Shown in pieces: positions 1,684 through 17,322 of a stretch of 64,000 nt of DNA. The stretch's first letter is position 1, and the number at the start of each line of letters is the position of its first letter. The stretch comes from a virus. Lineage: Duplodnaviria > Caudoviricetes. Below the pieces are notes generated by a model that was not told where the DNA came from, did not search any database, and worked only from the letters and a program-made list of their open reading frames with translations. The position numbers and the translations under genes were made by a program. Where the stretch lies: the IMG/VR virus record IMGVR_UViG_3300025087_000034; one strand, 5' to 3'.

Positions 1684-1711
1684 AAAAGGGCCCTTAGGGG
1701 CCCTTTTTTTA
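1684..1711 (+). terminator. Intrinsic terminator, possibly bidirectional
   Basis: AAAAGGGCCC-TTAG-GGGCCCTTTT followed by further T residues, downstream of the ankyrin gene. Confidence 0.8.
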
Positions 1712-1956
1712 TGGTTTGGTGTCGGCCCGACAAACCTTCCGTTTTCTTATCATTATAACTGTTCATCGGAGAAGTTTGTGAAATAGGCACTAAAGTAAAA
1801 TATTTGCAGATTTTTCACGTCTTAAATTTTTTTTCGCGCACTGAAAAAGACTCCAAATTAATAATACTTTCTTATATATTAATACAATTACCTATCTCTC
1901 TATTTCATAATAAACTATATTAAGATTCTTCCATAATCTTCCTTCTTGCCTCAATA

Positions 1957-2106
1957 ATATTGTATTCTTTTTATATTTCCCCCCTTTTAAGAATATTGTA
2001 TTCTTTTCAAAGCTTTCTTCCTCGTTTTCTCCCCTCTCCCTAACAATATTGTATTCTTTTCAGACATGATATTGTATTCTTTTCAAACATGGTATTGTAT
2101 TCTTTT
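1957..2106. repeat. Five dispersed 15-bp direct repeats (iteron-like)
   Basis: ATATTGTATTCTTTT at 1957, 1993, 2046 and 2069, and (G for the first A) at 2092. The last three are spaced 23 bp apart. Confidence 0.9.
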
Positions 2107-2202
2107 ATGTCCGTGGTGTACACCCTTTTGTTAAGAAATCCAGCAAAATTAATTTATTTTTTATTGAATAGGAGAATAAACTAATAAATTCAAACACATA
2201 AT

Positions 2203-2256
2203 TGTATGTACAATACTGTATGTACAATACTGTATGTACAATACTGTATGTACAAT
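2203..2256. repeat. 14-bp tandem repeat, ~3.9 copies
   Basis: TGTATGTACAATAC units at 2203, 2217, 2231 and 2245; each contains the palindrome TGTACA. Confidence 0.95.
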
Positions 2257-2257
2257 G

Positions 2258-2286
2258 TTGACATTGTACGTGCTTTCTTTTATATA
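2258..2286 (+). promoter_or_regulatory. sigma70-type promoter for the RHH gene
   Basis: TTGACA-N17-TATATA directly abutting the tandem repeat; AAGGAG RBS downstream. Confidence 0.6.
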
Positions 2287-2328
2287 TATAGTGTACCGTC
2301 TAGGGTATTTTAATAAGGAGAATAGATC

Positions 2329-2490
2329 ATGCAGAAAAAAGAAGGTAAAAGAATGAATTTTAGATTGTCGAATGAGACTATTACTATATTGAAAGGGTGT
2401 GCTGAAAAGAAGGGGGTAAGTATGACAGAGGTATTGGAAGAATTTGTATTAGTATATGGTACAAAGTGTTTAATAGAAGAAGATAAATAG
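2329..2490 (+). CDS. Ribbon-helix-helix (CopG/Arc-like) DNA-binding protein, 53 aa
   Basis: Manual translation MQKKEGKRMNFRLSNETITILKGCAEKKGVSMTEVLEEFVLVYGTKCLIEEDK shows an alternating beta strand (MNFRL), helix A, a G-x-S turn and helix B. It is below the ORF-track cutoff. Confidence 0.8.
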   Translation: MQKKEGKRMNFRLSNETITILKGCAEKKGVSMTEVLEEFVLVYGTKCLIEEDK

Positions 2491-2625
2491 TTATTTTTGT
2501 TAGTGTTTTGTAAGAAGAAAGTATATTATTATATTGTTTTGTTTGTTGTTTGTTAAAGAAAGAGTATACCTTAGCAAATAATTTTTGGGTTTTGTTTTTA
2601 TTTAGCGCCGAGAAAAAATTGGGTG

Positions 2626-2985
2626 CTACAAGAAAGGTAGGATTTCACTGAGGATTTTGTCTTCTTTCTCCTCTCTTTGTGCCTTTAGGTCTATCGATTT
2701 CTTTTCCAGAAAGGTTGCTATTGCCTCGACAAGGCCTTGATTTTCCTTATCGTTTAGTTCAATATCGGTTGTGAACCCCATCACACCATATTGAAGACTA
2801 GGTCTACCAAGACGACCGGGGGCTGGGTAATACACGACGAGGGATTTACGTCTCGCTGTGCACATGGCTGCCTTTGTGTTTGTCAGTACATAGCCCACAT
2901 CCATACTATCTTGGTTGTTTTCCCAGATCGTTCCATCATCGTTGGAAATACTGTTAAGAAGCATTTGGATCTTGGGGCGTATCAT
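2626..2985 (-). CDS. Hypothetical protein
   Basis: 119-aa ORF, AGGAAAAAC leader, in the strand of the arm. Confidence 0.6.
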   Translation of the reverse strand: MIRPKIQMLLNSISNDDGTIWENNQDSMDVGYVLTNTKAAMCTARRKSLVVYYPAPGRLGRPSLQYGVMGFTTDIELNDKENQGLVEAIATFLEKKSIDLKAQREEKEDKILSEILPFL

Positions 2986-3118
2986 GTTGTTTTTCCTTTT
3001 CTTTTTCAGTTCGCCAAGAAATTTTAGGGTTATAAAAAAGATGGGTTCTTTAGTTGTTTTAGGGTGTAGAAGGTGGGTTCTAAGGTGTATTTTGTATCCT
3101 TTGGATTTTTTAACAAGT

Positions 3119-3370
3119 TCAGTATTTATTTCGCCAAGAAATTTTCAGATTTTTTTGAGTGCCATAATAGAGCCAGAGCTCAGCTAAGGCTGTTTTGTAT
3201 CCATTTCCGTAGGAGGTATCTAAGTGAATATAAGCACGCCTCATTAATTGGATATTGTTCATATATAAAGAGTTATACAAGGCATCGTTGAATCCTGTTG
3301 AGAAGTCATTATCTAAACGTTCTTCCCTTGTCAAAGGGAAAAGTTTAGATTTTTTTCTCTTTGATTTCAT
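3119..3370 (-). CDS. Small hypothetical protein, paralog of 3625..3837
   Basis: Probable start MKSKRKK at 3370; shares DF..G(F/Y)NDAL and YG.GYK.AL motifs with 3625..3837. Confidence 0.65.
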   Translation of the reverse strand: MKSKRKKSKLFPLTREERLDNDFSTGFNDALYNSLYMNNIQLMRRAYIHLDTSYGNGYKTALAELWLYYGTQKNLKISWRNKY

Positions 3371-3428
3371 GAGGTTACCTTTTTTTAGTGCCGCGAAAAA
3401 ATCTGGGGTTTCATAGAGGGTTCGTTCT

Positions 3429-3608
3429 TTAGTCGTCTTGAACTGACAGAGGGTTGGACCAGTGGTTAGGATACCAAGCGGCATGGGCATCGAAGGATTT
3501 TACCGGGCATATTCTGCATAAGTGAGCTATACCGATGGCTTCGTTGGCTACTTCGTAATAATATTTAATGTGAAAGAACCCTTCTTGTGCTATCTTGTTT
3601 AAGTCCAT
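3429..3608 (-). CDS. Hypothetical 59-aa protein
   Basis: Manual translation MDLNKIAQEGFFHIKYYYEVANEAIGIAHLCRICPVKSFDAHAAWYPNHWSNPLSVQDD fills the gap between the two paralogs. Confidence 0.45.
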   Translation of the reverse strand: MDLNKIAQEGFFHIKYYYEVANEAIGIAHLCRICPVKSFDAHAAWYPNHWSNPLSVQDD

Positions 3609-3624
3609 GTTTTTGTTTCTTTTT

Positions 3625-3837
3625 CTAGAGTGAGAGCAACCCTATGTCGATTAGGGCTTTTTTGTATCCTTGTCCATAGATGGATTTGTGGTGTATGTGG
3701 TATATGCGTTTGAGATTTTCTTCTTTTAGATTGCAATAATCTTCTAAAGCATCATTATATCCTGCTTTGAAGTCATCCAATATATATTCTTCTTCTGCGA
3801 GTTTATATGGTTGTGGTTTCTTTTTATTAGATTTCAT
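3625..3837 (-). CDS. Small hypothetical protein, paralog of 3119..3370
   Basis: MKSNKKK start; DFKAGYNDAL and YGQGYKKAL motifs. Confidence 0.65.
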   Translation of the reverse strand: MKSNKKKPQPYKLAEEEYILDDFKAGYNDALEDYCNLKEENLKRIYHIHHKSIYGQGYKKALIDIGLLSL

Positions 3838-3878
3838 GGGGTTATCTTTTCTTTTGGCCTGCTAGGAAATTTTTCATA

Positions 3879-4382
3879 CTAGAAAGTACACACGAAATAT
3901 TTGTCTGGTAGTACTTCTAGTAGGGGTTTTACATCTTTCCATTCAAGTTCCCCTGCACCACAACCTGGTCGAGGAAGAAAGATCTTACAATCAATATTGT
4001 TAAACATTTCCTATAGTTGGGTTATACTTTGTTGTATGATAGCCGGACTAGCCTGTACGGCCCATCCAGGTATTTTGTTCCCAGGAGCAAACTTTCCTTT
4101 CATATGTTTTACTATTGTTTTAGAGTCATATGAGAAGACAGGTTTTACTGGGAAAGATACTAGAATGTATGAATCAAAAAGACCTAGAATGTTTACTACA
4201 TTCCCGTTCTTTTGAATCATATTTTCTAATAGTTTGGGTAGGTTAGGGAATTTTTTCGCCGCCGAAAAAGCAATCCCTCTACCCATAACACATTCTCCTT
4301 TTCCCTTTAAAAAATCATTAGTAGTAATACAAAGGATATTTCCTTTAGCTAATTCCCATAAATCTCCTCTAAGTTCCTTCAT
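3879..4382 (-). pseudogene. Macro-domain (ADP-ribose processing) gene interrupted by one in-frame TAG: pseudogene or read-through
   Basis: GGAGGTG RBS then MKELRGDLW..ITTN..VMGRGIA..FP. TAG at 4013-4011 (codon 124) is followed in frame by EMFNNIDCKIFLPRPGCGAGELEWKDVKPLL..., the typical C-terminal PxxGCGxGxLxW Macro motif, ending at TAG 3881-3879. Confidence 0.75.
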
Positions 4383-5199
4383 ATTACACCTCCAAGAATT
4401 CAGCAAGAAAATAATTAAAAATAAATAAACAAATTTAGTTTACATTTTTAGATATTTGTATTATATATGTAAATATGATTGGAGTATTGCCCCTCGCCCT
4501 CCTTTATAAATCTAGGGGCCGTTCACGAGAAACCTTTATGTCTTTTATGTTAAAAGAATAAATATATAACACATATAAGAAATAGGGTGTAAGTGATAGT
4601 TTTTTATGGGTTTTTTCGAAGAAAAAGAATCCATACATGAACCTATTTATGTATCTTACCTTGATCGGTAAAAATAGGGGTAAGCATATCGCCATAACGT
4701 AATGTCGTGAGTTTGTACACGCTAAAAGAATAGACATACTAATATATAATATTGAATCTATATTAATTCTAGGTTGATTTCTTTGTATATTTTCAAGTCT
4801 GTCATGAGAGTAAAGATGAAATCATACAAGTCTTGGTATACGTATAAAGAACTAGACTAGACCGAACTAGGGGGGATATTTTATATTGGGATAAGTTGTG
4901 TTAGCTTCCTATTGGTGATTTCACTTTTAGGTTTACTGCTATAGGTGTATTTATATAGTATTTATTTGTTTGTGGTAAACTTTTGTAGTGGAAAAACTTT
5001 ATGTAGGGGGCTATTTGTGTATCTATAGTAGAATTTCTAGGGTTTTATAGAAGGTCCGTTCTGTAGTCGTTTTAGGATGGTATGGGTTAGGGGTTTGGAT
5101 TTTTTCTTTTGCTGTGAAAATTCGGGGGTGGGTATTATAGTTGGTTTTTTACACGGTAGTAGGTTTCTATGGAGGGAGGGGAGAGAGCGAGGTAGAAAA

Positions 5200-5271
5200 T
5201 GGGCTCGCCGGGACTCGAACCCGGAATTCATCGGTTAAAAGCCGAGTGCGATGCCATTTCGCCACGAGCCC
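5200..5271 (-). tRNA. trnK: tRNA-Lys(UUU)
   Basis: Cloverleaf GGGCTCG/CGAGCCC, D-arm GCGA/TCGC, loop CTTTTAA, T-loop TTCGAGT; CCA is not encoded. Confidence 0.93.
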
Positions 5272-5275
5272 TTGA

Positions 5276-5347
5276 TGACCCTGCCGGGAATTGAACCCGG
5301 GTCTCTGGCGTGAAAGGCCGGTATCCTGGCCGCTGGACGACAGGGCC
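5276..5347 (-). tRNA. trnE: tRNA-Glu(UUC)
   Basis: Cloverleaf GGCCCTG/CAGGGTC, loop CTTTCAC, T-arm CCGGG-TTCAATT-CCCGG. Confidence 0.93.
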
Positions 5348-5405
5348 GTATAAGCCTTTTATACTCATGCTTAGGAGGTATTCTATGACGTGGCGAGGTG
5401 TTGGT

Positions 5406-5888
5406 CTAGAAGGGGTTGTTGTCGATGGAAGGGGAGGCTACTTCCTTCTGAGGTAACTGTTCCATTAGGGCCTGGAGTCGGGGGTCTTGGAGAAGGGCCT
5501 TCACCTGTTCGAGGTCGGTGAGGGCTGTTGGAGCTGCGGCTCCAGCAGGAGTTTCTTGCTGGCTCTTTAGACTGAGAGCACCGAAGCTCATGTGCTCCAC
5601 ACGTACTTCCCAGAAGTTCTTGTAGGTTCCGTCGTCTTCGTTCTTCTGGGAGAACGTTTTGATCCTACCGCGCACGAGCACTTCTTTGCCCTTTTTGCAG
5701 TGTTCGTTGGTTGCTCGGGCTCGAGGACCCCAGGTGATGCAGTTGATGACATCGGGATCCTTCTGTCCGGGCTCGTTCACCATAAGCCGGAACAGAGTCC
5801 TGTCGTCGGTTCCGTCTTCCTTGGACCCCTTGAAGAACATGGGGTCTGCGGCCAGCCTCCCACACACGATCGCGGTTGCCTCGTACAT
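5406..5888 (-). CDS. ssb: Single-stranded DNA-binding protein
   Basis: GRLAADP, CITWG..A, KGKEVLVRGRIKT OB-fold motifs and a C-terminal IDNNPF tail. Confidence 0.9.
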   Translation of the reverse strand: MYEATAIVCGRLAADPMFFKGSKEDGTDDRTLFRLMVNEPGQKDPDVINCITWGPRARATNEHCKKGKEVLVRGRIKTFSQKNEDDGTYKNFWEVRVEHMSFGALSLKSQQETPAGAAAPTALTDLEQVKALLQDPRLQALMEQLPQKEVASPSIDNNPF

Positions 5889-5963
5889 TTCTTTTTTCCT
5901 TTCTTGTGGGCCTTCCAGGCCCGTTTGTGCCGAATTTCTTTTGTTGTTTTTCGGCGTTGTTGT

Positions 5964-6347
5964 TCACGATTGTTCCGCAGAAAACTTTGCGGAATTGGGG
6001 TATTCTTCTTCTTCTTCTTTTGGTGGGGGTTGGCTTAGGAGTCCAGTTTCCCACTCTGTATTATTGTTTTTCTTTTCTTTGAGTTTGGGGTCTTGTGGGT
6101 CTGCTAGCCAGTTCCACAAGTGTTGGTTATTTTCCTTTTCTTTTGTAGGTTGTGGTTTCTGGTTTATTTCGTTGGGTTCTGGTCCTGTGGTGTCTGTTTG
6201 TGTTCTTGTGTCTGGTCCGTGTAGTTTTTCGGCTTCCTCCATAGCGTGTTGGTGTCGCCTATCTTCGTGGAACGCTACGAAGGCTGAAGCTATGCAGACC
6301 CCGATTACTAGCAAGGAAGCTGCTATTAGGATGGTTGGTATATCCAT
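5964..6347 (-). CDS. Hypothetical protein with an N-terminal transmembrane segment
   Basis: Hydrophobic N-terminus ILIAASLLVIGVCIASAFVAF; AGGAGG RBS. Confidence 0.65.
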   Translation of the reverse strand: MDIPTILIAASLLVIGVCIASAFVAFHEDRRHQHAMEEAEKLHGPDTRTQTDTTGPEPNEINQKPQPTKEKENNQHLWNWLADPQDPKLKEKKNNNTEWETGLLSQPPPKEEEEEYPNSAKFSAEQS

Positions 6348-6380
6348 ATTGTTCCTCCTTGCTGGTTTGGCAAAAAAGGG

Positions 6381-6554
6381 TTATATTTCTGTGTAGCGCT
6401 CGTAAAATTCTTTCCTTGGTAGACTTTCTGGGTAGATGAAGCCGTTGGGGCCCTGTCCTACTTCTACTTCGAAGTAGACCCTGTCTTGGGTTTCGTCGAA
6501 GACCAGGACGATTTCATCTGTGTAACGAATGTTACGATACTGTAGGGTCCTCAT
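6381..6554 (-). CDS. Hypothetical 57-aa protein
   Basis: Manual translation MRTLQYRNIRYTDEIVLVFDETQDRVYFEVEVGQGPNGFIYPESLPRKEFYERYTEI. Confidence 0.5.
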   Translation of the reverse strand: MRTLQYRNIRYTDEIVLVFDETQDRVYFEVEVGQGPNGFIYPESLPRKEFYERYTEI

Positions 6555-6762
6555 TTTTGGTTTCTTTCTTCGCAGATGGGGTTCCTATCTTAACGTTGAA
6601 GCCGTTCGACATCAAGTGAATCTTGACATCCTGTCCTTCGTCTTTGAGTTGACGATACAAGGACTTGGCCTCGTCGAAGGATTGGAAAATCTTTTCGACT
6701 TTCCAGTTCTTTTTTTGGTCAGTTTGTTTTGCTTGTGCTTTGTTTCTTTTGTTTTTTGGCAT
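6532..6762 (-). CDS. Hypothetical basic protein
   Basis: 76-aa ORF in the arm strand. Confidence 0.55.
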   Translation of the reverse strand: MPKNKRNKAQAKQTDQKKNWKVEKIFQSFDEAKSLYRQLKDEGQDVKIHLMSNGFNVKIGTPSAKKETKNEDPTVS

Positions 6763-6821
6763 CTATAGGTTTTTTCCTTGATTTTTTAGGGTTTTTGAGA
6801 AAATTCTCTTTATCTTTTTTG

Positions 6822-6895
6822 TGGGCCCGCCTGGGTTCGAACCAGGGACCTACCGGTTATGAGCCGGCGGCTCTGACCATCTGAGCTACAGGCCC
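6822..6895 (-). tRNA. tRNA with CAU anticodon, probably Ile2 (lysidine type)
   Basis: Cloverleaf GGGCCTG/CGGGCCC, GCCGG-CTCATAA-CCGGT anticodon arm. It lacks initiator features, and the GGCTCATAACC context resembles bacterial tRNA-Ile2. Confidence 0.88.
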
Positions 6896-7009
6896 AGGTG
6901 CTTGGATTTTTCCTTGTTTTATCAAGGGAGGCAATGTCCAAGCTACCTCGCTTTCATGTTTGTCTTTTCCTTTTTTTAAGTTTACGTCAAAAGTTCAGCA
7001 GAAAAAAGA

Positions 7010-7201
7010 TTAGTTTGTTTCTTTTGGAAGTGGTTGATATGCTTTTAGAAAGATCTCTTTCTTCATTCTAAAGAATTTTCCCATCAGATAGAAGATAAGC
7101 TTATCTTTTTTGATTGAAAAAAGGATTGGGGAGAATCCTCCTCGGAATTTCTTTCTTTTAGATTCACATGTTCTCATGTAGAATTTCCTCGATTGTTGCA
7201 C
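7010..7201 (-). CDS. Hypothetical protein
   Basis: 63-aa ORF in the arm strand. Confidence 0.4.
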   Translation of the reverse strand: MQQSRKFYMRTCESKRKKFRGGFSPILFSIKKDKLIFYLMGKFFRMKKEIFLKAYQPLPKETN

Positions 7202-7364
7202 GACCCCGCTCTTGTGGGTCGATGTGTACTTTTTTTCCGTTATCTTTGTTGGGGTCTAGTGGTTGGTGATTCTCTATGAGATACCATCCACCTAGGGTTT
7301 CTACCCACCAGGTGTTGTTGTTTTCTTGGTAGTGTAGGGTTCCCCGTGTTTGAAAGGCAAACAT
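7164..7364 (-). CDS. Hypothetical 66-aa protein
   Basis: Probable start MFAFQTRG at 7364, overlapping the stop of the upstream gene. Confidence 0.45.
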   Translation of the reverse strand: MFAFQTRGTLHYQENNNTWWVETLGGWYLIENHQPLDPNKDNGKKVHIDPQERGRATIEEILHENM

Positions 7365-7759
7365 TAGTAGTTTTGGTTCACAATGAAGAGAAAAAAGGGG
7401 AGTTCTTTTACTCTTCCCATGGTGAAGAGGCTGAGTTTTACTTCTCCCATCAAGATTCGAACAGTTTGGGCGATTCGAGGGAGCATTTCCTTCTTGTATG
7501 GGACTAAGAAGGCGACCGCTAAGGTAACTACCCCCTCTTTGAGACAGTGGTGGTTGACGATGATGGCAACTTCTCCCGTATTTACGGTAGTTATGGTTTT
7601 GCATCTCTTGGAGGGTTCCCACTTTGTGGGAGGAGGCGTGCTATGGGTGTGGGTTTTATGGTTGCATCCTGCTGCAGCGCTTATTACTAGCATCATGATT
7701 ACAGCAAGAACACCCGCAAGGCAAGCACAGGCTGCTTGTACCATCTTTTTATCTGGCAT
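7364..7759 (-). CDS. Hypothetical membrane/lipoprotein-like protein
   Basis: Long hydrophobic N-terminus ending AAAGC (lipobox-like). Confidence 0.55.
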   Translation of the reverse strand: MPDKKMVQAACACLAGVLAVIMMLVISAAAGCNHKTHTHSTPPPTKWEPSKRCKTITTVNTGEVAIIVNHHCLKEGVVTLAVAFLVPYKKEMLPRIAQTVRILMGEVKLSLFTMGRVKELPFFLFIVNQNY

Positions 7760-8022
7760 GTTTGTATCCTTTTTTTGGTTTCTTTTGACTCTTCATAAAT
7801 TCCTCAAAAAATTTCAGCTATGAATGGGTAAATCCGTTCTTATATTTGGGCGCTTATGTTTCTGTTTCTTTTCTTTTCTTTAGCGTAGGATTCATTTACT
7901 AATTCACGAATTTAGCAGAAAGATGGTAAGGTAGGATTTAGCAGTGGTAATGTAGTTAGCGAAGGGTTTCAGAGTGGGGGTGGCAGGGGGAGGAATCTCC
8001 CCCTGAAAAGTAGTATAGAAAT

Positions 8023-8057
8023 GCAGGAGTTAGGACACTTTGTGGCCTAACTCCTGC
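8023..8057 (-). terminator. Hairpin downstream of 8122..9285, probable terminator
   Basis: Perfect 12-bp stem GCAGGAGTTAGG/CCTAACTCCTGC; weak U-tract. Confidence 0.45.
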
Positions 8058-8121
8058 TACATTGGATTTTCTGGGGCTAGGGAGGCCCGAAGGGCCTCCC
8101 TAGTTTGTTTTGTTTGAGGTT

Positions 8122-9285
8122 TTATTCTTTGACCTTGGAGAGCCAAGGTCGTTTGCGTTCGGGGTGGGGGGTCCCTTGGACCCATCGAGGGAAGTACTTG
8201 CGGCGGGGCTGTGGGTGGAGGAGTTCGTGTTTTTCCTTTTCGGTGATAGGCCTCGGCATCCAAGGTCTGGTTGCTCGGCTTGGGGTGGAAAGACCTCGAA
8301 GGGGCTCCTCACCTCGAATTATCTTGTTAGCAAGTTTCATCAGCTTGCTTTTGTGGATAGGAGCTAGGATGGCTCCGACCCATGCTGTTTTATTTCCCAG
8401 CGCCTCCATTTTGCGGCATTGGGTGTTGTTGATATCGATAGCCTCGATTAGGCGAGTACGCGCTTTTTTGACTTGCTCGATGGACGAGCAAGACAATAGG
8501 TAGCTGTGAAGCCAGCGGTATCTGAGCTCCCGACTTCGGGTGAGGCTTTCTAGCCACCCGAAGAGGGGCTTGTTGGAGTCGTGAGCTTGTTCGGCTGCCC
8601 GTCGAGCTTTTTCCTCGCTGATGTAGCAATCACCCTCGGCTTCTAGCCGAGTCCTGGTTTGGTCGAGGACAACGTCCTCGCTTTCCACCACTGGGTGGAA
8701 AGAAATGTCGATGTCTTCGTCCGCGAAGGCACCGGACTTAATCCAGGCTGACCGAGTCAGTCCAGGTCGGTCGGTTTCGACTTCTTTCATTTTAGCATTG
8801 ACTGTTAGCGCACAATCAAATGCGTCTGCTCGGTCTGCACCGAGCGAAAGAAGTTCGATGAAGGTTACTCGGTGAATGGAAATTGGGTCCAATTCATAGG
8901 GTCCAATCTCGTCTCCAAACAGATTGGTGAGTTCTTCATTCACCATATCAAGTTCTTTGATGGGGGTTTCATGGAGATCGACAATCTCCATGTTGTAAGC
9001 GAGGTCTTGATCGGCCTCGCTAAACTGCATTTCGGCTTGGGAATAAAGCCGTTTTCTGCGAACGAACCCCCGGGGGGTTGTTTCCGATTCCATTCCGAAG
9101 GTGACTCCTTCTTCGAGGAGATCACCTGCCGGGATGGATACTCCCCAGCTGGTTTGGAGAGTTTTCCAAAGCTCGTCAAAGTTTGTCATGGGGAATCTCC
9201 TTGCGAGTTCCGCAGAAAAGGGTTTTTCTGCAGCCCCCCGAAACGAAGAATCCGTTCGGGGGAGGTTTTTATTTTCGGCTTCCAT
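8122..9285 (-). CDS. Unknown 387-aa protein, paralog of 13570..14652
   Basis: Shared blocks G.EIGPYE, LFGWL..RYRWL.SYLLSC, ARTRLIEAIDINN, AWVGAIL.P, RPWMP. Confidence 0.8.
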   Translation of the reverse strand: MEAENKNLPRTDSSFRGAAEKPFSAELARRFPMTNFDELWKTLQTSWGVSIPAGDLLEEGVTFGMESETTPRGFVRRKRLYSQAEMQFSEADQDLAYNMEIVDLHETPIKELDMVNEELTNLFGDEIGPYELDPISIHRVTFIELLSLGADRADAFDCALTVNAKMKEVETDRPGLTRSAWIKSGAFADEDIDISFHPVVESEDVVLDQTRTRLEAEGDCYISEEKARRAAEQAHDSNKPLFGWLESLTRSRELRYRWLHSYLLSCSSIEQVKKARTRLIEAIDINNTQCRKMEALGNKTAWVGAILAPIHKSKLMKLANKIIRGEEPLRGLSTPSRATRPWMPRPITEKEKHELLHPQPRRKYFPRWVQGTPHPERKRPWLSKVKE

Positions 9286-9361
9286 TTGTCTTTTAGCCGA
9301 AAATAAAAGCTGACACCGGACTTCCGACAGCAGGGTTACGTTGCATCGTCTAAACTCGCGA

Positions 9362-9389
9362 TTGACACAATATGTTAGTTAGTTAGTAT
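9362..9389 (+). promoter_or_regulatory. sigma70-type promoter facing the candidate ncRNA
   Basis: TTGACA-N16-TAGTAT. Confidence 0.55.
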
Positions 9390-9395
9390 AGTAGA

Positions 9396-9697
9396 TAATA
9401 GTATCTTCTACCTTAGGCCGGTGAATGGGAGACACCAAGCGAGTTGCGAGGGCAACGTTTTGACTGAGTTGGCAAGACCTTGCAGGCTTTGGTGCAAGGG
9501 AAGTGCCAACGAAGGAGAGACGTCACCCGAGTAGATTTCTTAGCTTGGTGTTGACCCCCCACGAATAGAAGTGAAGGCGCAGACTTTGCTTTGCAAAGTA
9601 TGTGACTGAACGGTGAGTGGGGCTTTTTTCACCGGAGTCCCTGGGGAGGGAATGCCCCAGGGACCTACCCGAGGCGCCTTGCGCCGAGGGTTTTTTT
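9396..9697 (+). ncRNA. Candidate structured ncRNA (~300 nt), unknown family
   Basis: Eight mutually nested helices plus a 10-bp hairpin and a GC hairpin with T7; no ORF (see findings). Confidence 0.7.
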
Positions 9698-10151
9698 CTT
9701 GCGTTAGCTTGACCGTAGGGTAGCTGGTTTCCAGCTAGTCCGAAGGACCGAGCGGAGCGAGCCCGGAGGGGAAGCGGCCAGATGCTTCATCTGGCAACGC
9801 CCAAATCTTCAATTATTTTTTCAACTTATACATCTCATTTTGGACATTATAAAAATATATATACACCACCATTAGTAAGTAAGAACAATACAAATGTATT
9901 AATAGTATCTTGTTTTTTTATTTCTCAATATATGTGTTTACTTGTGTAGGCTGAAGTTGAGAAGTAGCGAAGCGAGCAACGCGAGCGGAGCAGTTAGGCT
10001 GGCACGGGAGTTGCATAAGCAACTCACGTGTCAGCCGGAATAATATTGCACGACACGTGACGGCCCGTAAGGGCCGGCACGGGGCGTGCTACATTTTTGA
10101 AGTAAAAGAGTTAGGTTTCCTTCTTCTCCCCTCTTTTATCTGTTTCTTGTT

Positions 10152-10424
10152 TTAGCAGTCCAGGTCTACCATGACGGGGTGGCCGTATTGATGGGCAGGT
10201 GCCAACACAACCAGGTAGTAGCCACATCCCGGCTCGACAGCACTCTGGCTTACCCCACGCACGTCACAAGGAGTGGCCCTGATCGCTACTTTTACAGCGT
10301 CAGATGTTGACCAGTGTGCATCATAGTAGCTATGCATGTCGATCGCTACATTGTATGCCCACTTTCCGCTACCCTTTTTGAATAGGTTGCCTTCCACGAT
10401 ACTATCGTTGGTGCAATATCCCAT
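10152..10424 (-). CDS. Hypothetical protein
   Basis: 90-aa ORF with AAGGAAAAG leader. Confidence 0.6.
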   Translation of the reverse strand: MGYCTNDSIVEGNLFKKGSGKWAYNVAIDMHSYYDAHWSTSDAVKVAIRATPCDVRGVSQSAVEPGCGYYLVVLAPAHQYGHPVMVDLDC

Positions 10425-10448
10425 TGTTCTTTTCCTTTGTAGGAAGAA

Positions 10449-10479
10449 AAAATCCCACCCGAAGGGAGGCTGGGATTTT
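10449..10479. terminator. Bidirectional terminator-like hairpin
   Basis: AAAATCCCA-CCCGAAGGG-AGGC-TGGGATTTT; a sister element lies at 11454-11487. Confidence 0.65.
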
Positions 10480-10509
10480 GAAACGCTCTGTGTTTTAGTA
10501 GGACCTTTA

Positions 10510-10890
10510 TCATTTCAATGAGGGTAGTTCTACTATCCCATATTTGATAAATAGGGCGTTCAGTGCTTCTTTATGGGTCCTACCAGGGTAAGTTCCTGTG
10601 GTATTGTCCCATTTGCTGATGTAGGTGCGTGGTGAGGTGCAGTGGTCGTCTAGCCAATTATGGATTGTTGCGGCGATGACTTTTGCTGTATAGTAAGCTT
10701 TTTCGGTAGCGTCCCAATCACGATTGAAATCTTTCATGAATAGGGAGCTTCCAACCTTGCCTCTGTAGCCGGCTCGTTGTATTAGTAGCCTAACATACTT
10801 AGCGTTTTCCGGGATTAGGTCTCTCCTATCTCCTCGTAAACATTGATATATCTTTGGCGGTGCTTTTGAAAAGCAGGCTTTGTTTAGCAT
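10510..10890 (-). CDS. Hypothetical protein
   Basis: 126-aa ORF with AGGAAA leader. Confidence 0.6.
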   Translation of the reverse strand: MLNKACFSKAPPKIYQCLRGDRRDLIPENAKYVRLLIQRAGYRGKVGSSLFMKDFNRDWDATEKAYYTAKVIAATIHNWLDDHCTSPRTYISKWDNTTGTYPGRTHKEALNALFIKYGIVELPSLK

Positions 10891-10944
10891 TGTATTTCCT
10901 GAGGGCAGGGGTTATAGGGGGCTGGCAAGCTCTCTGAAGAATCT

Positions 10945-11124
10945 CTACTTGTACACCTCCACGGTCTCGTCGTTCTCGTGGAATACGAGGACCCCGCCCT
11001 TGGTTTTGAGATTGACCCAACCAACCTCGAGCTTGTCGAGGGTTGCGTCACCTTCGTACACTTGTCCGGTGATGTTGCAGGCTACCGTTCCGGGAACAGT
11101 AACCAGGTTCTTTTCTGTTCGCAT
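10945..11124 (-). CDS. Hypothetical 59-aa protein
   Basis: TAGGAG RBS; MRTEKNLVTVPGTVACNITGQVYEGDATLDKLEVGWVNLKTKGGVLVFHENDETVEVYK. Confidence 0.6.
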   Translation of the reverse strand: MRTEKNLVTVPGTVACNITGQVYEGDATLDKLEVGWVNLKTKGGVLVFHENDETVEVYK

Positions 11125-11133
11125 TTTGTTCTC

Positions 11134-11376
11134 CTATGGGTTTCTCACCAAGGTGAAAAACGGGTTGTGGGTAAGCCCCTTACCCCAAGCAAGGGCTTTC
11201 ACCCTTGCCTCGTTGTTCATTTCCACGCAAAGGTCGTGAACGACCTTTGTGAGTTCTGAACTAAATCCCCGCCTTGCTCGGGGGTCCAGAACGTTGGACA
11301 AGCAGCGCTCAAGGCGGTGCTTTTTTTGAAGGAGATGCTCGATTTTCATGTTGGCCTCCTTGCCCATATTGGGCAA
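11134..11376 (-). CDS. Hypothetical protein (start probably MKIEH after AGGAGG)
   Basis: ORF with a strong RBS. Confidence 0.6.
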   Translation of the reverse strand: MPNMGKEANMKIEHLLQKKHRLERCLSNVLDPRARRGFSSELTKVVHDLCVEMNNEARVKALAWGKGLTHNPFFTLVRNP

Positions 11377-11453
11377 AATGTTCAGAAATTCAGCAGAAAA
11401 GATTTAGTACCCGATGAGGTTGGAGGGCACTATTCTTTTCTGCTGATCATGGA

Positions 11454-11487
11454 AAAACCCAGCACGCCCGAAGGGCGGCTGGGTTTT
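11454..11487. terminator. Bidirectional terminator-like hairpin
   Basis: AAAACCCAGC-ACGCCCGAAGGGCG-GCTGGGTTTT. Confidence 0.65.
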
Positions 11488-11492
11488 AGGTA

Positions 11493-11660
11493 CTAGAGGT
11501 ATCCGGAGGCGTAGTAATCTGCCTCCATCGCTTCCAAGTCTTCCTGGTGGCCATCTGCCACCAAGAAAAAATCACAAGCTAGGGCGTACGCCCTAGTGTA
11601 TGATAATCTCCAGCGAGCACGGGGGCGGGGCCCTCTCCATCGGAGGTTCTTTTTCATCAT
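11493..11660 (-). CDS. Hypothetical 55-aa protein
   Basis: Manual translation MMKKNLRWRGPRPRARWRLSYTRAYALACDFFLVADGHQEDLEAMEADYYASGYL; it is preceded by the shared leader motif. Confidence 0.4.
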   Translation of the reverse strand: MMKKNLRWRGPRPRARWRLSYTRAYALACDFFLVADGHQEDLEAMEADYYASGYL

Positions 11661-11795
11661 CTTTTTTCTCTTTTTCTGCCCAATTTGGGCAGCAAGTTCG
11701 AAAATTCAGCAGAAAAAGGAATCTCCAGGGGTAGAAAGAGACAGGGGTTATAGGGGGCTGGCAAGCCCCCTAAGAAGGGGGTCCATCAGAACATG

Positions 11796-12278
11796 TTAGA
11801 GACCAACCTTGTCCATGCGAACCACCTCAATGCCCAGGCGCTCCGCAATGAGCAGGCCCTGGCCAGTGCCCCCCAGCCCCCATTGGTTGGGCTTGGGCCA
11901 GGCGTACACGAGAGAACTCCCCTCGATGATGAGGAAGTTCCGAGCGTGAAGCGCCCTAGCCCCACTACTCAGGCGGTCAGCCGCCGGGTGCAGCCGAACC
12001 GACTCCCTCGCGGCCTTGTGCTCAGGACCAAGCACAAGAACCTGGGCACCCAGCTTCTGAGCCTGGCCCACCCAGGGGGCCTCGTACGAGGCCCAGGGCA
12101 AGCACAGGGTAACCTGGCCACCGACCCTCAGGGCGCCAGCAGCGAAGGCCTGGTCGGCTCCTGTGCAGGCCCCTGTCCTCAAGGTCCATCCCAGCTCAGC
12201 TAACACCTCCCCGACTGCAGAGCAAGCGGTCAGTTCTGTAAGGGATAACCGTCGACTGCCAATACCTGCGTATTCCAT
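11796..12278 (-). CDS. SLOG-superfamily (DprA/Smf-like) protein
   Basis: YAGIGSR, LRTGACTGADQAF, LHARN, GGTGQG motifs; GAGGAGGTG RBS. Confidence 0.8.
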   Translation of the reverse strand: MEYAGIGSRRLSLTELTACSAVGEVLAELGWTLRTGACTGADQAFAAGALRVGGQVTLCLPWASYEAPWVGQAQKLGAQVLVLGPEHKAARESVRLHPAADRLSSGARALHARNFLIIEGSSLVYAWPKPNQWGLGGTGQGLLIAERLGIEVVRMDKVGL

Positions 12279-12357
12279 GGGGGCACCTCCTCACAAATTC
12301 AGCAGAAAAATAAAAAGGTAGGTATATAAAGAAAGGTAGATATTGGAGACAGAGGTG

Positions 12358-12801
12358 AGCGAAGGCGCGAGGAGTTGCGTAAGCAACTCTCGTGCCGCAG
12401 CGAAAGGGGTTGCAAGCCCCCTGACAGGCCGCTTTGGGCCTGGCGGGGGGCTTGCTCCGGCTGTCTTCTATATATAATAATGCAGATTACCTTAAGCGCG
12501 GAGGTAAGAGAGTTGCGTGAGCAACTATCTTACCGTAGCGAAATGAGCTTTGAGGGAGCGAAGGCGCGAGGAGTTGCGTAAGCAACTCTCGTGTCGCAGC
12601 GGAAGGGGTTGCAAGCCCCGTGACTGACCGACCGAAGGGAGGGCAGGCGGGGGGCTTGCTCGGGGCGAAGCGAGCGCAGCGAGCGGAGCGGGGAGCGGAG
12701 GCGCGAGGAGTTGCGTAAGCAACTCTCGTGCCGCAGCGAAAGGGGTTGCAAGCCCCCTGACAGGCCGCTTTGGGCCTGGCGGGGGGCTTGCTCCGGCTGT
12801 C
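12358..12801. repeat. Triplicated GC-rich hairpin cassette
   Basis: Exact 102-bp direct repeat at 12364-12465 and 12700-12801, a variant copy at 12557-12661, and a partial hairpin at 12502-12534. Confidence 0.92.
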
Positions 12802-13326
12802 CATTCTTTAATGAATACCCTACGATTTCGAGGCTGCCTAAAATTTAGCGCGGGCTAAAAAGAATTTAACACCTGAGCTTAAAATACTATCATATTATTC
12901 CATATACCAGAATAAGGATATTTCTTCAGACTATAAATACATGTTTGGGGATGAAAAAAGACATACCCACCAGTACAGGTCAGAATTGACTTTTATTTTG
13001 TTGGTCTATATTTATTGATTGGGTAGGATTGTTTAAACGTATTTTTGTTAGCCCGCCGAATAAAAACCTGGGTATTTAACAAAATTGTCGTCCCGTATAT
13101 ACGTCAACATAAACGTGTGTTGGTGTATAATGTCCTTACCTATCTTCCCCACTTATAACAATCCATAATGAATTGTACTTATTTTTGTGGCTCTATCTTT
13201 GGGTTTGGGGGTTATGTACAATCGTACCTTGTAAGAGAAAACCCAGGGATTCTAGGGATTTACAGTCCAGTGTGTCCGACTAGGTATGAGAGGGGCAGGG
13301 GTGGGGGCGTCCAGCCCCCTCCCTGT

Positions 13327-13524
13327 TTAGGTGTGGTAATAGTGTCCGTTTAGACACTCCAAAGTTTCCCTGTCTGGGGAATGTTCCAACCATTCCCCAC
13401 AAACAGGGCACTTCGCCGTGAAACCCACACCCAACCAAGGATCTACCCCTAACCAAGGATGTCCAAACTTGTACTCCTCGCACATGCGAGTCCAATTCTC
13501 AAACGAAATCAATTTCTTTTCCAT
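13327..13524 (-). CDS. Small Zn-ribbon-like protein
   Basis: CPVCG..ECLNGH motif; GGAGG RBS. Confidence 0.55.
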   Translation of the reverse strand: MEKKLISFENWTRMCEEYKFGHPWLGVDPWLGVGFTAKCPVCGEWLEHSPDRETLECLNGHYYHT

Positions 13525-13569
13525 GTTTCTTTTCCTCCCTAGCCCCCCCCGTGGGGGGGGCTGTTTGGG

Positions 13570-14652
13570 TTAGGGTAGCCAAGGACGTTTGTTCCTATCC
13601 GGCTTTACCAGACAAGGAACCAAAGACCGTTCCCTAAGAAGCTCATTAGTAAGTTTCATTAGGGATCTTTTCTGGCTTGGATTGAGTATTGCCGCAACCC
13701 AAGCCTCAGAGTTTTTCTTTTCTACCTTTCGTATCATCTTATTGTTTCGGTCAATGCTTTCGATAAGCCGTGACCTAGCAATCTTGACTTCCCTTTTTGT
13801 TTGGCATGACAAAAAATACCTGTAAAGCCAAACATACCTTTGTGAACGAAAGTTCACAACTTGGTCAAGATATCCAAATAGCTTTTTCTCACTATCTGGA
13901 GAATTGAGAAAAGCCTCAATTTGGGTTTGTTCTTCTATGTGTCCTTCCCGTTCCCTTTCCATTGGGGAAAGGGTAAAGTCCACCATTTCATCCTTACCCA
14001 AAATAATGGGCTCGAAACCTACTTTAGTAGGCTCAGAAGGTTCCGAACCATGCCATTCCTGTTTCAATCTTGCTTGTTTGCGGGAAAAGAAACGGAAATA
14101 CGAACGATGAAAGTGTCTACCTGCCCTAAGACTAGCGTCGCTTCCTATCTTAGAGTTAGCTTCATTTCGAGCCTTCCTGTAAAAGGATAACCAATACCAA
14201 TGTCCCCTTTCCTCCCTTGCTCTAACAAGGGCTTGGAAGTATAGGGCCCAATCAAGGGCCTGGTCAATCGAGGCCCCTAGGTCAATCATGGTGCGGTACT
14301 CTCCAGTATGATAGTCTACCTCGATTGTTTCGTATGGTCCAATGTCTGAACCATATATTCCCCATATGTCTGAAACATATGGATCCAAAGCCTTGGGATT
14401 GTCTTTTTCTGACAACCCTTCTAACTCATGGCTTTGGGTATTAAATACCCTGGTTGTTCTTTCATCTTCTATGTTGCACTCATGTCCTGAGTCCAACATT
14501 TCCCCCAAGTTTGTTTCCTTATTCCAATTAGAAGAACCATAGCAGGGTTCCTCCACTGTTTGTTCCCTTGTTTTTACAAGGGAAAGAAGAACGGAAGCAA
14601 TGAAGCCTTGCTTCCAGTATTCCTTTTTTCTCTTTCCTACGTATCCGTACAT
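13570..14652 (-). CDS. Unknown 360-aa protein, paralog of 8122..9285
   Basis: GSDIGPYE, LFGYL..RYVWLYRYFLSC, ARSRLIESIDRNN, AWVAAILNP, RPWLP. Confidence 0.8.
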   Translation of the reverse strand: MYGYVGKRKKEYWKQGFIASVLLSLVKTREQTVEEPCYGSSNWNKETNLGEMLDSGHECNIEDERTTRVFNTQSHELEGLSEKDNPKALDPYVSDIWGIYGSDIGPYETIEVDYHTGEYRTMIDLGASIDQALDWALYFQALVRAREERGHWYWLSFYRKARNEANSKIGSDASLRAGRHFHRSYFRFFSRKQARLKQEWHGSEPSEPTKVGFEPIILGKDEMVDFTLSPMEREREGHIEEQTQIEAFLNSPDSEKKLFGYLDQVVNFRSQRYVWLYRYFLSCQTKREVKIARSRLIESIDRNNKMIRKVEKKNSEAWVAAILNPSQKRSLMKLTNELLRERSLVPCLVKPDRNKRPWLP

Positions 14653-14722
14653 TTTCCATTCTCCTTTCCTGGTTAGAATTTCATCATAGCGCCAAATTTT
14701 TCTTGGGCGCTATAAAAAAACA

Positions 14723-14932
14723 CTAACCCAAACCCTTACGGAAATCCTCCGGAGAAACAACCTCCGGATAAAGAACCGTAAATGAAATCCTAGAGCAGGA
14801 TTTCATTACGAATCCCCTTTTGACAGGTCTCAAAAGAAGGTTCAATTCCTTTGCTTCGTCAAACCTCCCTAAGGGTCCGACATATGATGCCCCCCTATTG
14901 TCAATCAATTGCAAGAAGTATTCGTGTTTCAT
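14723..14932 (-). CDS. Hypothetical protein
   Basis: 69-aa ORF with AAGGA RBS. Confidence 0.5.
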   Translation of the reverse strand: MKHEYFLQLIDNRGASYVGPLGRFDEAKELNLLLRPVKRGFVMKSCSRISFTVLYPEVVSPEDFRKGLG

Positions 14933-14951
14933 GTTGTTGTCCTTTCCTCTG

Positions 14952-15323
14952 TTATCCGAAGTATTCTTTCAAGTGGCCGTTTTCGGCCATTGAAATGATT
15001 CTTCCATCCGTTCCGATAATGAAATGGTCTGTAAGGGTAAGGCCGTATTGAGTAAGAATAATGCTAACACGCCTTGTTGCTTTTATGTCTTGTGTTGACG
15101 GTTTAGCTTTCCCCTTGGGATGATTATGAATAAGAATAATGTATTGCGCTTGTAATTCCTTGGCTCTAGCAAGAATCTTTCCACAATCAAACCAGACCGT
15201 TTTAGTGGTACCCTCTGCTAGTTTTTCTAGCTTGACCTTCCCATTCCCAATGTATCCTACAAGAGCTATTTCTTTGCTCTCTTTGTGTAAAGCGTACCCT
15301 TTGATTTTCTCTAACAATTCCAT
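14952..15323 (-). CDS. radC: RadC-like JAB domain protein
   Basis: HNHP.G...PS.QD...T and DHFIIG JAB metal-binding motifs. Confidence 0.88.
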   Translation of the reverse strand: MELLEKIKGYALHKESKEIALVGYIGNGKVKLEKLAEGTTKTVWFDCGKILARAKELQAQYIILIHNHPKGKAKPSTQDIKATRRVSIILTQYGLTLTDHFIIGTDGRIISMAENGHLKEYFG

Positions 15324-15606
15324 TGGTTTCTCCCTTGTTAGGTGCTTATTCGCTTGCCCAATTTAGAATCAGACAAGCTGGTAAGAATCTAACTCCCTAG
15401 TATTGGCCTCAGTATAATCGTCCGGTCTGCTAGGGTCTCGACCTTGGTTTGCTTTTAGCCTTACAGGGTCTTTGTCGGGCCTTTTCCCGTGATATCCCTT
15501 TGGTTAGAAGGGACAGGGTATTTCGGTTGGTAAGTACCTCCTTTGTTATGATAGCGTGGTGAACCTAGCCGCTATCGAAACCATCAACCAACCACCCCGT
15601 TGTATA

Positions 15607-15623
15607 TGCACCATACATGCCAA
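15607..15623 (-). promoter_or_regulatory. sigma54 -24/-12 promoter
   Basis: Minus strand TTGGCATGTATGGTGCA = GG-N10-GC (consensus YTGGCACGRNNNTTGCW). Confidence 0.65.
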
Positions 15624-15637
15624 AGGGCGAAACCTAC

Positions 15638-15797
15638 TAACTAATTGAAATTGTTAGGCTCCGTTTTTACCGAGATTGACAAAGTATGACAAGAATGTCA
15701 TAGCGTTTTAGGAAAGTGAACGATTACAACATGTTAGTTACTCTCAGAAAACTGAGGCGAGTATCAAATTTCTGATAGCTACCATAACCAATTGAAA
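15638..15797. promoter_or_regulatory. IHF-like sites (15638-15650, 15785-15797) and palindromic UAS (15685-15702)
   Basis: TTTCAATTAGTTA and TTTCAATTGGTTA (one mismatch each to WATCAANNNNTTR); perfect palindrome TATGACA-AGAA-TGTCATA. Confidence 0.55.
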
Positions 15798-16174
15798 TTA
15801 TTTGTCTTTTGTTTTTCAGCTCCCCCTACCCCTATACCGATACTTTTACAGTATAGCCACCCCTCGGGCCGGGGGGCCTAATTACACCCTCTGAACCTAA
15901 AAACCCAATCATCCCCATCTTCATATAAATTCATATAAATTTATATATTTATTAAAATATCTAAATTTGGATAAGGGTTCGACCCCCAAGTATGGGGGGC
16001 AAACCCTACCCCCCACCAAGGGGGGGGGCCAACCCTACTATTTATCAAAAAAAACAAAATTTCTTCTTTACTTTTTTAATATTTCTTCCTATAATAAAAT
16101 ATAGATAAAAATCCGAACATGTTAAAAACAATTTGGGGGTTATAAAAAAATAATTTAATTTTATGCAATAAAAC

Positions 16175-16203
16175 TTTACATTTTTAATTTCTAGACCTAT
16201 AAT
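16175..16203 (+). promoter_or_regulatory. sigma70 promoter at the start of the rightward arm
   Basis: TTTACA-N17-TATAAT with an AT-rich upstream region. Confidence 0.75.
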
Positions 16204-16209
16204 ATAAAC

Positions 16210-16545
16210 AGGTAATGCCAATGGCATTATTTAACATACTATCTAGTCGTTTCAAGACTTACCCTAGTAGAGGGCGGTTAAAAACACCCAAAAAGTTTTT
16301 ATACACCGATAGTCTACAGAGCGTGTTCACTGTTATCGAGGAACCGGCATAATCAGGATAAACTTGCCTTGGGAAGGCAAATGAATACTCCGAAGCCCTG
16401 AGTGGGGTCCGTTGTAGGATTAAATGTGGAGCCCGGGTAACTCACAGTTAAAAAGCGTGGCAGGGGTGTGCAGCCCCTGTTCATTAGGAAAAAGATAAGA
16501 AAATATCTTTGGCCCTCCTTTGAAGGCCTCAAGTTTTTTTCCTTT
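16210..16545 (+). ncRNA. Candidate structured RNA or long 5' leader
   Basis: ORF-free, multiple hairpins, ends in a T-run; the first CDS begins only at 16735. Confidence 0.45.
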
Positions 16546-16734
16546 CTTTTTCTTTATGGTCCCCACTATAAAGGGGTTCCCTTTTCCTTATTTTGGGAAG
16601 GGGGGATTTAGGGGGGATGGGTTCTTGGTTCTTTCGTTTTTTGTTTGACAGTACTTGGGGATGTCTTTTAATCCCTTAGCTTTCGACTTTTCAACAATGT
16701 TTAACTCCTTTAACTATCAGAAAAAGATTTCTAG

Positions 16735-17322
16735 GTGACAATTATGAAGATTAAACTAACAATACCTCAAATTCTATGTCGAAATGTTACCCATCCAAGA
16801 ACTGATGCAGATGAAATATACCTTGCCTACTATATAAGTCTTGCTCGTGTATCTGAGGATAAGACTGAAGTAAGAAAGCACCTAGTAAAAAAGATTTCAT
16901 CAATTAAGAACGGAGTAAAGAAGGGTAATAGATGGTCTCCAGATAGTTTAGAAACAATAGTAGAAACTGGGGATGCAGACAGCCTATTCGTAACTTTTGG
17001 GCTTTATGAAGCAGATGATAAAAAGATATATAAGAAATTGAAGGAAAAATCAGACATACTAGTGGAGCCAGAAAGCTACGATTGGTCTGGACTAGAAATT
17101 CCAGTAGACTTCACTAATTGGATGTCGTGGGTGAAGGCTATCTGGAAAGCTGTAACAGTTTCATATACATACCTAGTTCAAGATGACTTGATAGGTAAGT
17201 ACTCTATAGCAGTACCCAGAATTAAGGGGGAAGATAGGGCATGGTTGGGTAATAGAGAATTAAAGTTTAGTAGCTTTGGTGGAGACTATAGAGTTAGTTT
17301 ACTTATGGAAGAAGTAAAATAG
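16735..17322 (+). CDS. Hypothetical protein
   Basis: 195-aa ORF. Confidence 0.7.
   Translation: MTIMKIKLTIPQILCRNVTHPRTDADEIYLAYYISLARVSEDKTEVRKHLVKKISSIKNGVKKGNRWSPDSLETIVETGDADSLFVTFGLYEADDKKIYKKLKEKSDILVEPESYDWSGLEIPVDFTNWMSWVKAIWKAVTVSYTYLVQDDLIGKYSIAVPRIKGEDRAWLGNRELKFSSFGGDYRVSLLMEEVK

Follow-up and report, generated by a model that had tools for sequence, protein, structure and literature searches.

Huge phages contain large non-coding stretches that are unexplained, and few structured RNAs of phages have a known role. The locus considered here, nucleotides 9362–9697 of a 64,000-nt stretch of phage DNA (hereafter, the window), raises the question of whether one such stretch harbors a gene for a stand-alone structured RNA and, if so, what this RNA might do. 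The initial annotation of the locus pointed to a promoter, a nested set of helices and a terminator that lie divergently from a gene encoding an orphan 387-aa protein. Should the RNA be real and have a protein partner, it would represent a new type of phage ribonucleoprotein and would provide a function for the protein family to which the 387-aa protein (P0001) and its paralog P0003 belong. If the locus is not expressed, it would illustrate that promoter- and terminator-like sequences around palindrome-rich DNA can mimic an RNA gene. With its predicted ends and extremely stable fold, the element is a clean and experimentally tractable candidate.

Genomic setting of the element

The window comes from a large phage and contains a terminase large subunit gene (34212–35912), a portal gene (35963–37876) and many homing endonucleases. 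Groundwater and soil metagenomes of six studies contain the phage, and a 247.6-kb contig carries the 90-aa protein encoded next to the element. The phage terminase is of an ordinary type, ~26% identical to terminases of Bacillus siphophages; it has no close relative in IMG/VR, and its identity to GenBank phages does not exceed 27%.

In the left 17 kb of the window the genes point leftward, and this arm has a low coding density. Three tRNAs were found by ARAGORN in the window, at positions 5200–6895. Within the arm, a GC-richer island extends from 7.9 to 13.5 kb, with a GC content of ~47–57% compared to 35–40% elsewhere. According to a rough gene map, all nine gaps longer than 350 nt lie within positions 1–17000 of the window, and none is present in the 47-kb rightward structural arm.

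The element has a promoter and a terminator but no credible ORF

The TTGACA (9362–9367) and TAGTAT (9384–9389) hexamers upstream of the fold are separated by a 16-nt spacer. Together they form the only σ70-like site with at least 10 of 12 matches, on either strand, within the 3 kb scanned. Sites of this quality occur 29 times in 128 kb (both strands of the window), i.e., about once per 4.4 kb, and finding one by chance 30–60 nt ahead of the fold would thus be an event of ~1–2% probability. σ70-like promoters are also present elsewhere in the phage.

No ORF longer than 37 aa was found within the element using genetic code table 11. Stop-to-stop frames read with TAG as Gln or TGA as Trp gave no Pfam hit, and small ORFs of at least 20 aa gave neither a family hit nor a hydrophobic toxin-like peptide. 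The statements of the initial annotation that a plus-strand promoter is followed by no ORF, and that a 10-bp hairpin and a GC hairpin with a T7 tract lie at the 3′ end, were therefore all borne out: the promoter and both hairpins are present where they had been placed (Table 1), and no credible ORF exists under three genetic codes. A same-strand promoter, the absence of ORFs and a terminator that completes the bracket around the structure are among the attributes of an independent bacterial-type small RNA gene, and all of them are found here. Since the promoter and the terminator bracket the fold exactly and are both on the plus strand, they support the existence of a plus-strand RNA gene. The phage was found in no RNA run; three metatranscriptomes of the same study gave only cross-matching tRNA fragments.

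Table 1. Coordinates of the element, its parts and neighboring features in the window
Feature	Coordinates	Strand	Details
σ70-like promoter TTGACA-N16-TAGTAT	9362–9389	+	10/12 matches; predicted +1 near 9396
AU-rich 5′ leader, predicted unpaired (~22 nt)	9395–9417	+	includes 12-mer TAATAGTATCTT at 9396–9407
Core: 8-bp closing helix CCGGTGAA/TTCACCGG (9418–25/9628–35) around two arms	9418–9635	+	P 0.96
5′ arm: ~125-nt irregular rod with apical loop GGCUUUGG	9427–9556	+	from the ensemble fold
3′ arm: CCCCAC/GTGGGG around ACTTTGC-TTT-GCAAAGT, 66 nt	9557–9622	+	from pair probabilities
10-bp GC-rich hairpin with 8-nt loop AGGGAAUG	9637–9664	+	P 0.99; dG −21.1 kcal/mol
Intrinsic terminator CCC-GA-GGCGC/GCGCC-GA-GGG (sixth GA/GA loop) followed by T7	9668–9697	+	stem 9668–9690; dG −14.4 kcal/mol
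Gene of 387-aa orphan protein P0001, divergent from the element	8122–9285	−	paralog P0003 at 13570–14652
Perfect 14-bp AU-rich inverted repeat	9267–9308	−	dG −15.5 on the mRNA strand
Sibling unit RNA-2	9900–10100	+	same 12-mer; structured block, z −7.7
Gene of 90-aa orphan protein	10152–10424	leftward
Hairpin cassette with four GTTGC-N4-GCAAC copies	12358–12801	+	z −9.8

The predicted fold of the RNA

A comparison with shuffled sequences, which had been suggested together with the initial annotation, revealed that the plus strand of the element folds far better than expected. The minimum free energy of 9395–9700(+) is −143 kcal/mol, compared to a shuffle mean of −100.3 (z −8.83; none of 100 shuffles was as good), and the core alone, 9416–9637(+), has a z-score of −8.45; taken alone, these z-scores are less specific than they appear, since the whole island is structure-rich, with 200-nt windows across 7.9–13.5 kb often reaching z below −4 even inside the coding sequence of the 387-aa protein.

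Ten helices had been proposed, eight in a single nested fold and two as hairpins after it. Every one of the ten is a true complementarity at the positions assigned to it, and eight are well supported, with mean pair probabilities of 0.96–1.00 in the Boltzmann ensemble. The remaining two, the GTTGC-GAGG-GCAAC hairpin (9443–56) and the TGAC/GTCA helix (9461–64/9522–25), have a probability of 0 in the RNA ensemble. They are lost because an alternative pairing, better by 16 kcal/mol, makes 9431–9552 one continuous irregular rod. Under DNA parameters, the GTTGC-GAGG-GCAAC hairpin does form.

Tandem G-A loops distinguish the plus strand

The plus-strand fold contains six symmetric 2×2 GA/GA internal loops. 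Four are located in the rod (9429–30/9553–54, 9448–49/9529–30, 9462–63/9515–16 and 9466–67/9511–12), which has, in addition, one CA/CA loop and one AGA/GAAG loop. The fifth is in the 3′ arm (9573–74/9608–09), along with two G/A 1×1 mismatches, and the last one is in the terminator stem. In 300 dinucleotide-preserving shuffles the mean number of such loops was 0.19 and the maximum was 2. No GA/GA loops were found in the minus-strand fold or, on either strand, in nine further blocks of the arm that are intergenic or structured. Most of the loops are in the favorable pyrimidine-GA-purine context. On the minus strand the loops turn into UC/UC mismatches, which argues that the plus strand, which is also the strand of the promoter and the U7 terminator, is the one that is folded and selected. 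The G-A loops make up a distinctive signature of this strand, and proteins could recognize them as a code.

A sibling unit and recurrent hairpins in the same island

The 12-mer TAATAGTATCTT, located exactly at the predicted transcription start of the element, has one other exact copy in the 64 kb, at positions 9900–9911. There it belongs to a second structured unit, referred to as RNA-2. This unit contains an 18-bp hairpin at 9997–10036 (core GAGTTGC-ATAA-GCAACTC), then a GGCCC-GTAA-GGGCC hairpin and, at its 3′ end, a terminator-like stem with T5 (10076–10098). Read on the minus strand, the 12-mer contains TACTAT, which in a relaxed scan could serve as the −10 element of leftward promoters. 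Complements of the 12-mer, which might be targets in trans, are about as frequent in the window as expected (17 vs 13, with at most two mismatches allowed).

Two alleles of the segment 9929–10085, situated between identical flanks, were found in groundwater run X8. They differ by 16 substitutions and 4 indel events. Within the 9997–10036 hairpin, all eight stem changes in the second allele keep pairing. Double compensatory changes were observed at 10006G>T with 10027C>A (G-C to U-A) and at 10009A>G with 10024T>C (A-U to G-C), while the remaining changes turn A-U into G-U and G-U into G-C and exchange a G/A mismatch for A/G. In each of the two alleles there is a G-U pair whose minus-strand counterpart would be a C/A mismatch, so that wobble pairing is confined to the plus strand. 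These data provide direct evidence, at the population level, of constraint on the plus-strand structure of RNA-2, a neighbor of the same design as the element.

The window contains six copies of the GTTGC-N4-GCAAC hairpin, with 0.02 expected, and all of them are between 9.4 and 12.8 kb: one in the element (9443), one in RNA-2 (10010) and four in a downstream hairpin cassette (12374, 12512, 12573 and 12710). The outer stems of the copies differ yet are paired, and a bulge or mismatch after the seventh pair is conserved. The loops of the related copies are mostly GNRA-like (GUAA, GUGA). A GCUUUG apical loop is common to the cassette and the element.

Three units of the cassette (12358–12421, 12557–12620 and 12694–12757) match the Twister-P5 model with 17.4–22.9 bits, below its gathering score of 37.6, and have the CAAGCCC loop and several stems in common with it. 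A Twister-P5 ribozyme was nevertheless rejected for these sub-threshold matches, in which L4 is UUGCAAGC instead of UCCCAAGC. When the alignment keeps the long hairpin intact, the cleavage-site UAA expected between P1 and P2 is deleted, and the cassette was not filed as a twister.

Other parts of the arm were also found to be structured or variable. The intergenic block 11240–11700 is strongly structured (z of −8 to −10 in 200-nt windows, slightly stronger on the minus strand) and holds a duplicated motif made up of a TGCCCA..TGGGCA hairpin and a leader. Two plus-strand promoter-like sites with 10 of 12 matches, TTAACA-N16-TATCAT at 12866 and TCAACA-N16-TATAAT at 13104, are in an AT-rich gap adjoining the hairpin cassette and oppose the leftward genes. 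In one ENA assembly of the same phage (L001, 7334–7433), ~100 nt replace ~609 nt of the window (11757–12365), and the SLOG/DprA-like gene (11796–12278) is absent. Copies of a motif, AAATTCAGCAGAAAA, at 11702 and 12295 flank the segment missing from this assembly, pointing to either a deletion by recombination between the repeats or an assembly collapse.

Searches for known families and homologs

The element had initially been described as lacking any recognizable signature of a known RNA, and database searches agree with this. A cmscan search of Rfam 15 gave no match to the element at gathering scores; in the whole window only the three tRNAs pass. When the segment 9250–9850 was searched with E-values of up to 10, the best matches scored 12–18 bits (E 0.3–9) and corresponded to terminator hairpins or to the AU-rich repeat. 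ARAGORN finds no tRNA or tmRNA at 9362–9697.

No homolog of the element was revealed by blastn among 50,697 phage records, and no exact 26-mer of the element is present in IMG/VR. An 18-nt hairpin sequence gave three single hits in IMG/VR and 30 in GTDB genomes; these hits are scattered and, being without flanking similarity, are attributed to chance. The same 18 nt occur three times with an 81-nt period in a contig of a Treponema MAG (L010, 4396–4575), where they are probably part of an unrelated tandem or CRISPR-like repeat. A pattern combining the hairpin with GCTTTGG had 57 matches in IMG/VR, all in unrelated coding sequence. A structure-aware loop pattern with 19 fixed bases and free helices had 15 hits in JGI metagenomes, none with complementary arms.

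In the five contigs and eleven sequencing runs where the element was found, it is 100% identical. With all public copies identical, there is no covariation for the element itself. Homologs with covarying pairs, the hallmark of a conserved structured RNA class, were not found for it, and covariation is seen only in RNA-2. Since no second member was found, it would be premature to speak of a class; the element is a singleton without a match to any described RNA family.

Several specific identities were considered and rejected. A retron msr-msd is not compatible with the locus, since no plus-strand gene follows the element and the flanking ORFs have neither an RVT nor any other Pfam hit. An ωRNA of IscB/TnpB or an IS110 bridge RNA, which would call for a RuvC/HNH nuclease or DEDD/serine recombinase gene next to it on the same strand, was rejected because P0001 has no match in family databases and is encoded on the opposite strand. 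Nor is there a match of the element to the Rfam models of HEARO and its relatives. Overall, the genes beside the element encode no recognizable RNA partner such as a reverse transcriptase, transposase or Cas protein. The central bubble of 6S RNA is absent, as are the flanking exons and plus-strand coding expected of a group I intron. The small ORFs are not toxin-like, as they would be in a type I toxin mRNA. Lastly, GGA is present in only one of four hairpin loops (AGGGAAUG), which does not fit a CsrB/RsmZ-type sponge.

The neighboring orphan protein P0001

The gene of P0001 starts 77 bp from the element, in agreement with the initial estimate of about 75 bp between the orphan start and the promoter. 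The orphan status of the protein was confirmed as well, with a family of three members found: P0001, its paralog P0003 (29% identity, E 2e-40) and P0004 (451 aa, E 5e-77), the sole distant P0001 homolog in a set of 1.8 billion cluster representatives. A word-based comparison with 5.8 billion proteins added no further family member. P0001 has no match in Pfam, PHROGs, NCBIfam, PADLOC, a PDB profile search or the ESM Atlas. Its AlphaFold model is all-helical but unreliable (mean pLDDT 44.5), and its C-terminal tail is rich in Arg, Pro and Trp. On the sole contig that carries P0004, the P0004 gene is preceded by an ORF-poor region of ~0.9 kb with only a dubious 57-aa call. This upstream gap matches the arrangement seen for P0001. 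With adjacency as the sole link, P0001 is only a candidate for the RNA partner of the element. The 90-aa protein encoded on the other side is also an orphan.

The P0001 start codon (9283–9285) is within the 14-nt loop of the perfect inverted repeat listed in Table 1, and no obvious Shine-Dalgarno sequence is present. The repeat may be a translational or operator control element.

Interpretation and alternative explanations

We estimate at about one half the probability that 9396–9697 is a stand-alone plus-strand gene of a non-coding structured RNA of ~300 nt, one of at least two sibling units that would be embedded antisense in the leftward arm. Under such a scheme, a host-type RNA polymerase would start transcription from the TTGACA-N16-TAGTAT promoter and would stop at the GC hairpin followed by U7, producing a ~300-nt RNA. 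The 5′ 12-mer common to the element and RNA-2 would make them sibling RNAs. As to function, the anatomy of the RNA tentatively suggests that it could act in trans, binding protein as a stable decoy or scaffold, a possibility that we hold with considerably less confidence than the existence of the gene itself. The regularly spaced purine-purine loops may then be recognition sites; they may also serve to break long helices, so that the RNA avoids being ordinary double-stranded RNA. A broader proposal, which we consider rather speculative, is that the element (RNA-1), RNA-2 and the 12.3–12.8 kb cassette are parts of one new phage RNA system, whose antisense-embedded plus-strand RNAs, with G-A loops along their helices and the GUUGC-N4-GCAAC hairpin in common, would form ribonucleoproteins with the P0001/P0003 family. 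All three known family members are encoded beside long ORF-poor structured gaps, and the system might function as an anti-defense decoy or as a replication or packaging cofactor.

The main alternative to a protein-binding role is antisense action or transcriptional interference against leftward read-through. The element and RNA-2 would collide or pair in cis with leftward transcripts from 10152–10890 and so uncouple or tune the expression of the 387-aa gene, in a mode that can be likened to that of lambda OOP or P22 sar. The arrangement of the locus agrees with this: the element is contained in an 866-nt gap between two leftward genes (10152–10424 and 8122–9285). No leftward terminator-like site was found in the 866-nt gap, which means that leftward read-through would be fully complementary to the element. 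The P0001 start is close, and the 14-bp hairpin around its start codon suggests that P0001 is regulated. However, antisense regulators need neither an ornate 300-nt fold nor six tandem G-A loops, strong self-structure would hinder full-length pairing, and the RNA overlaps neither the coding sequence nor the start of P0001. We regard regulation of this kind as unlikely.

The other alternatives deny a plus-strand RNA altogether, and each explains less of the anatomy than a plus-strand RNA gene does. One is that the structure works in minus-strand mRNA, either as a long 5′UTR or as an intercistronic element for processing or stability, and that the promoter and terminator on the plus strand are coincidental. 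The leftward direction of every neighboring gene and tRNA, the weak leftward promoter-like sites at 9425 and 9955, and the presence of structure on both strands in other intergenic blocks of the arm are in line with this explanation, and the minus strand does fold well, with a z-score of −6.95 vs −8.83 for the plus strand and a raw energy of −117 vs −143 kcal/mol. The plus strand is G-rich, which favors G-U pairing there through composition; the energy gap is thus partly compositional, and the strand call is based on the z-scores and the G-A count. It is this count that drops to zero when the GA/GA loops become UC/UC. The 10/12 promoter and the U7 terminator are plus-specific, as are the wobble pairs of both RNA-2 alleles, and we find a minus-strand function improbable.

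An equally improbable explanation is that the element arose as palindromic repeats (REP- or MITE-like) accumulated in an acquired, GC-richer island, with no function or only a generic one. The confinement of the six GTTGC-N4-GCAAC hairpins to 9.4–12.8 kb and the high GC content of the island could be accounted for in this way, as could the GCGAG and GCTTTG motifs that the element and the cassette have in common and the fact that the cassette region differs in copy number or content between assemblies. Against it, a single 20-nt hairpin match is all that blastn revealed in the way of a paralog of the element, and accretion of repeats predicts neither six strand-specific GA/GA loops nor a single nested fold with a closing helix.

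The least probable explanation is that the element works at the DNA level, for instance in replication initiation, priming or recombination, with the plus strand folding when it is single-stranded. Only 7 of 93 pairs are G-U, which makes most helices plain, almost purely Watson-Crick inverted repeats that would also fold as DNA (z −7.3 with DNA parameters). Tandem G-A mismatches are stable in DNA too, an AT-rich 140-bp stretch (9800–9940) adjoins the element, and SSB, DprA-like and RadC genes are in the same leftward arm. Against it, neither iterons nor repeats resembling DnaA boxes were seen, the tetraloops of the related hairpins are of the GNRA type (GUAA, GUGA) typical of RNA, and the exact bracketing by a promoter and a terminator would be left unexplained.

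Comparison with known systems

A plus-strand RNA gene of this kind can be compared with several known systems. Tandem 5′-GA/5′-GA pairs between Watson-Crick helices are reminiscent of K-turns and C/D-box motifs. A K-turn was rejected, since all six GA/GA loops are symmetric 2×2 loops without the defining 3-nt bulge, and no L7Ae-type protein was found among the neighbors tested.

Lambda OOP, P22 sar and P1 c4 are simple hairpin RNAs of 60–80 nt that overlap their target genes. The element resembles them in having its own promoter, a short transcript, an intrinsic terminator and an orientation opposed to the neighboring gene flow, but it is 300 nt long and ornate, and it overlaps no annotated coding sequence.

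The T4 species 1 and 2 RNAs (rnaC and rnaD) are stable small phage RNAs of the tRNA region, processed from a tRNA precursor. Like them, the element would be a discrete, highly structured, non-coding RNA of a large phage, encoded in a region of low coding density with tRNA genes. Unlike them, it has its own promoter and terminator, runs antisense to the tRNAs and to the genes around it, is longer by a factor of about two, and has no sequence or Rfam relationship to the T4 RNAs.

GOLLD and ROOL are large ornate phage-associated RNAs found near tRNA loci, which have been the subject of cryo-EM work (bioRxiv 10.1101/2024.12.08.627333). The association with a phage, the heavy structure and the proximity to tRNA genes are common to these RNAs and the element. 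In contrast to GOLLD and ROOL, which are 500–800 nt long, widely conserved and covarying, the element is ~300 nt long and a singleton with no model match.

Finally, the element differs from phi29 pRNA (RF00044) in that cmscan gives no match and the phage terminase is of an ordinary type, but the two are alike in overall design: in both, paired 5′ and 3′ ends close a multi-branch domain, which is followed by an extra 3′ hairpin domain. The phi29 pRNA is a protein-binding scaffold and not an antisense RNA.
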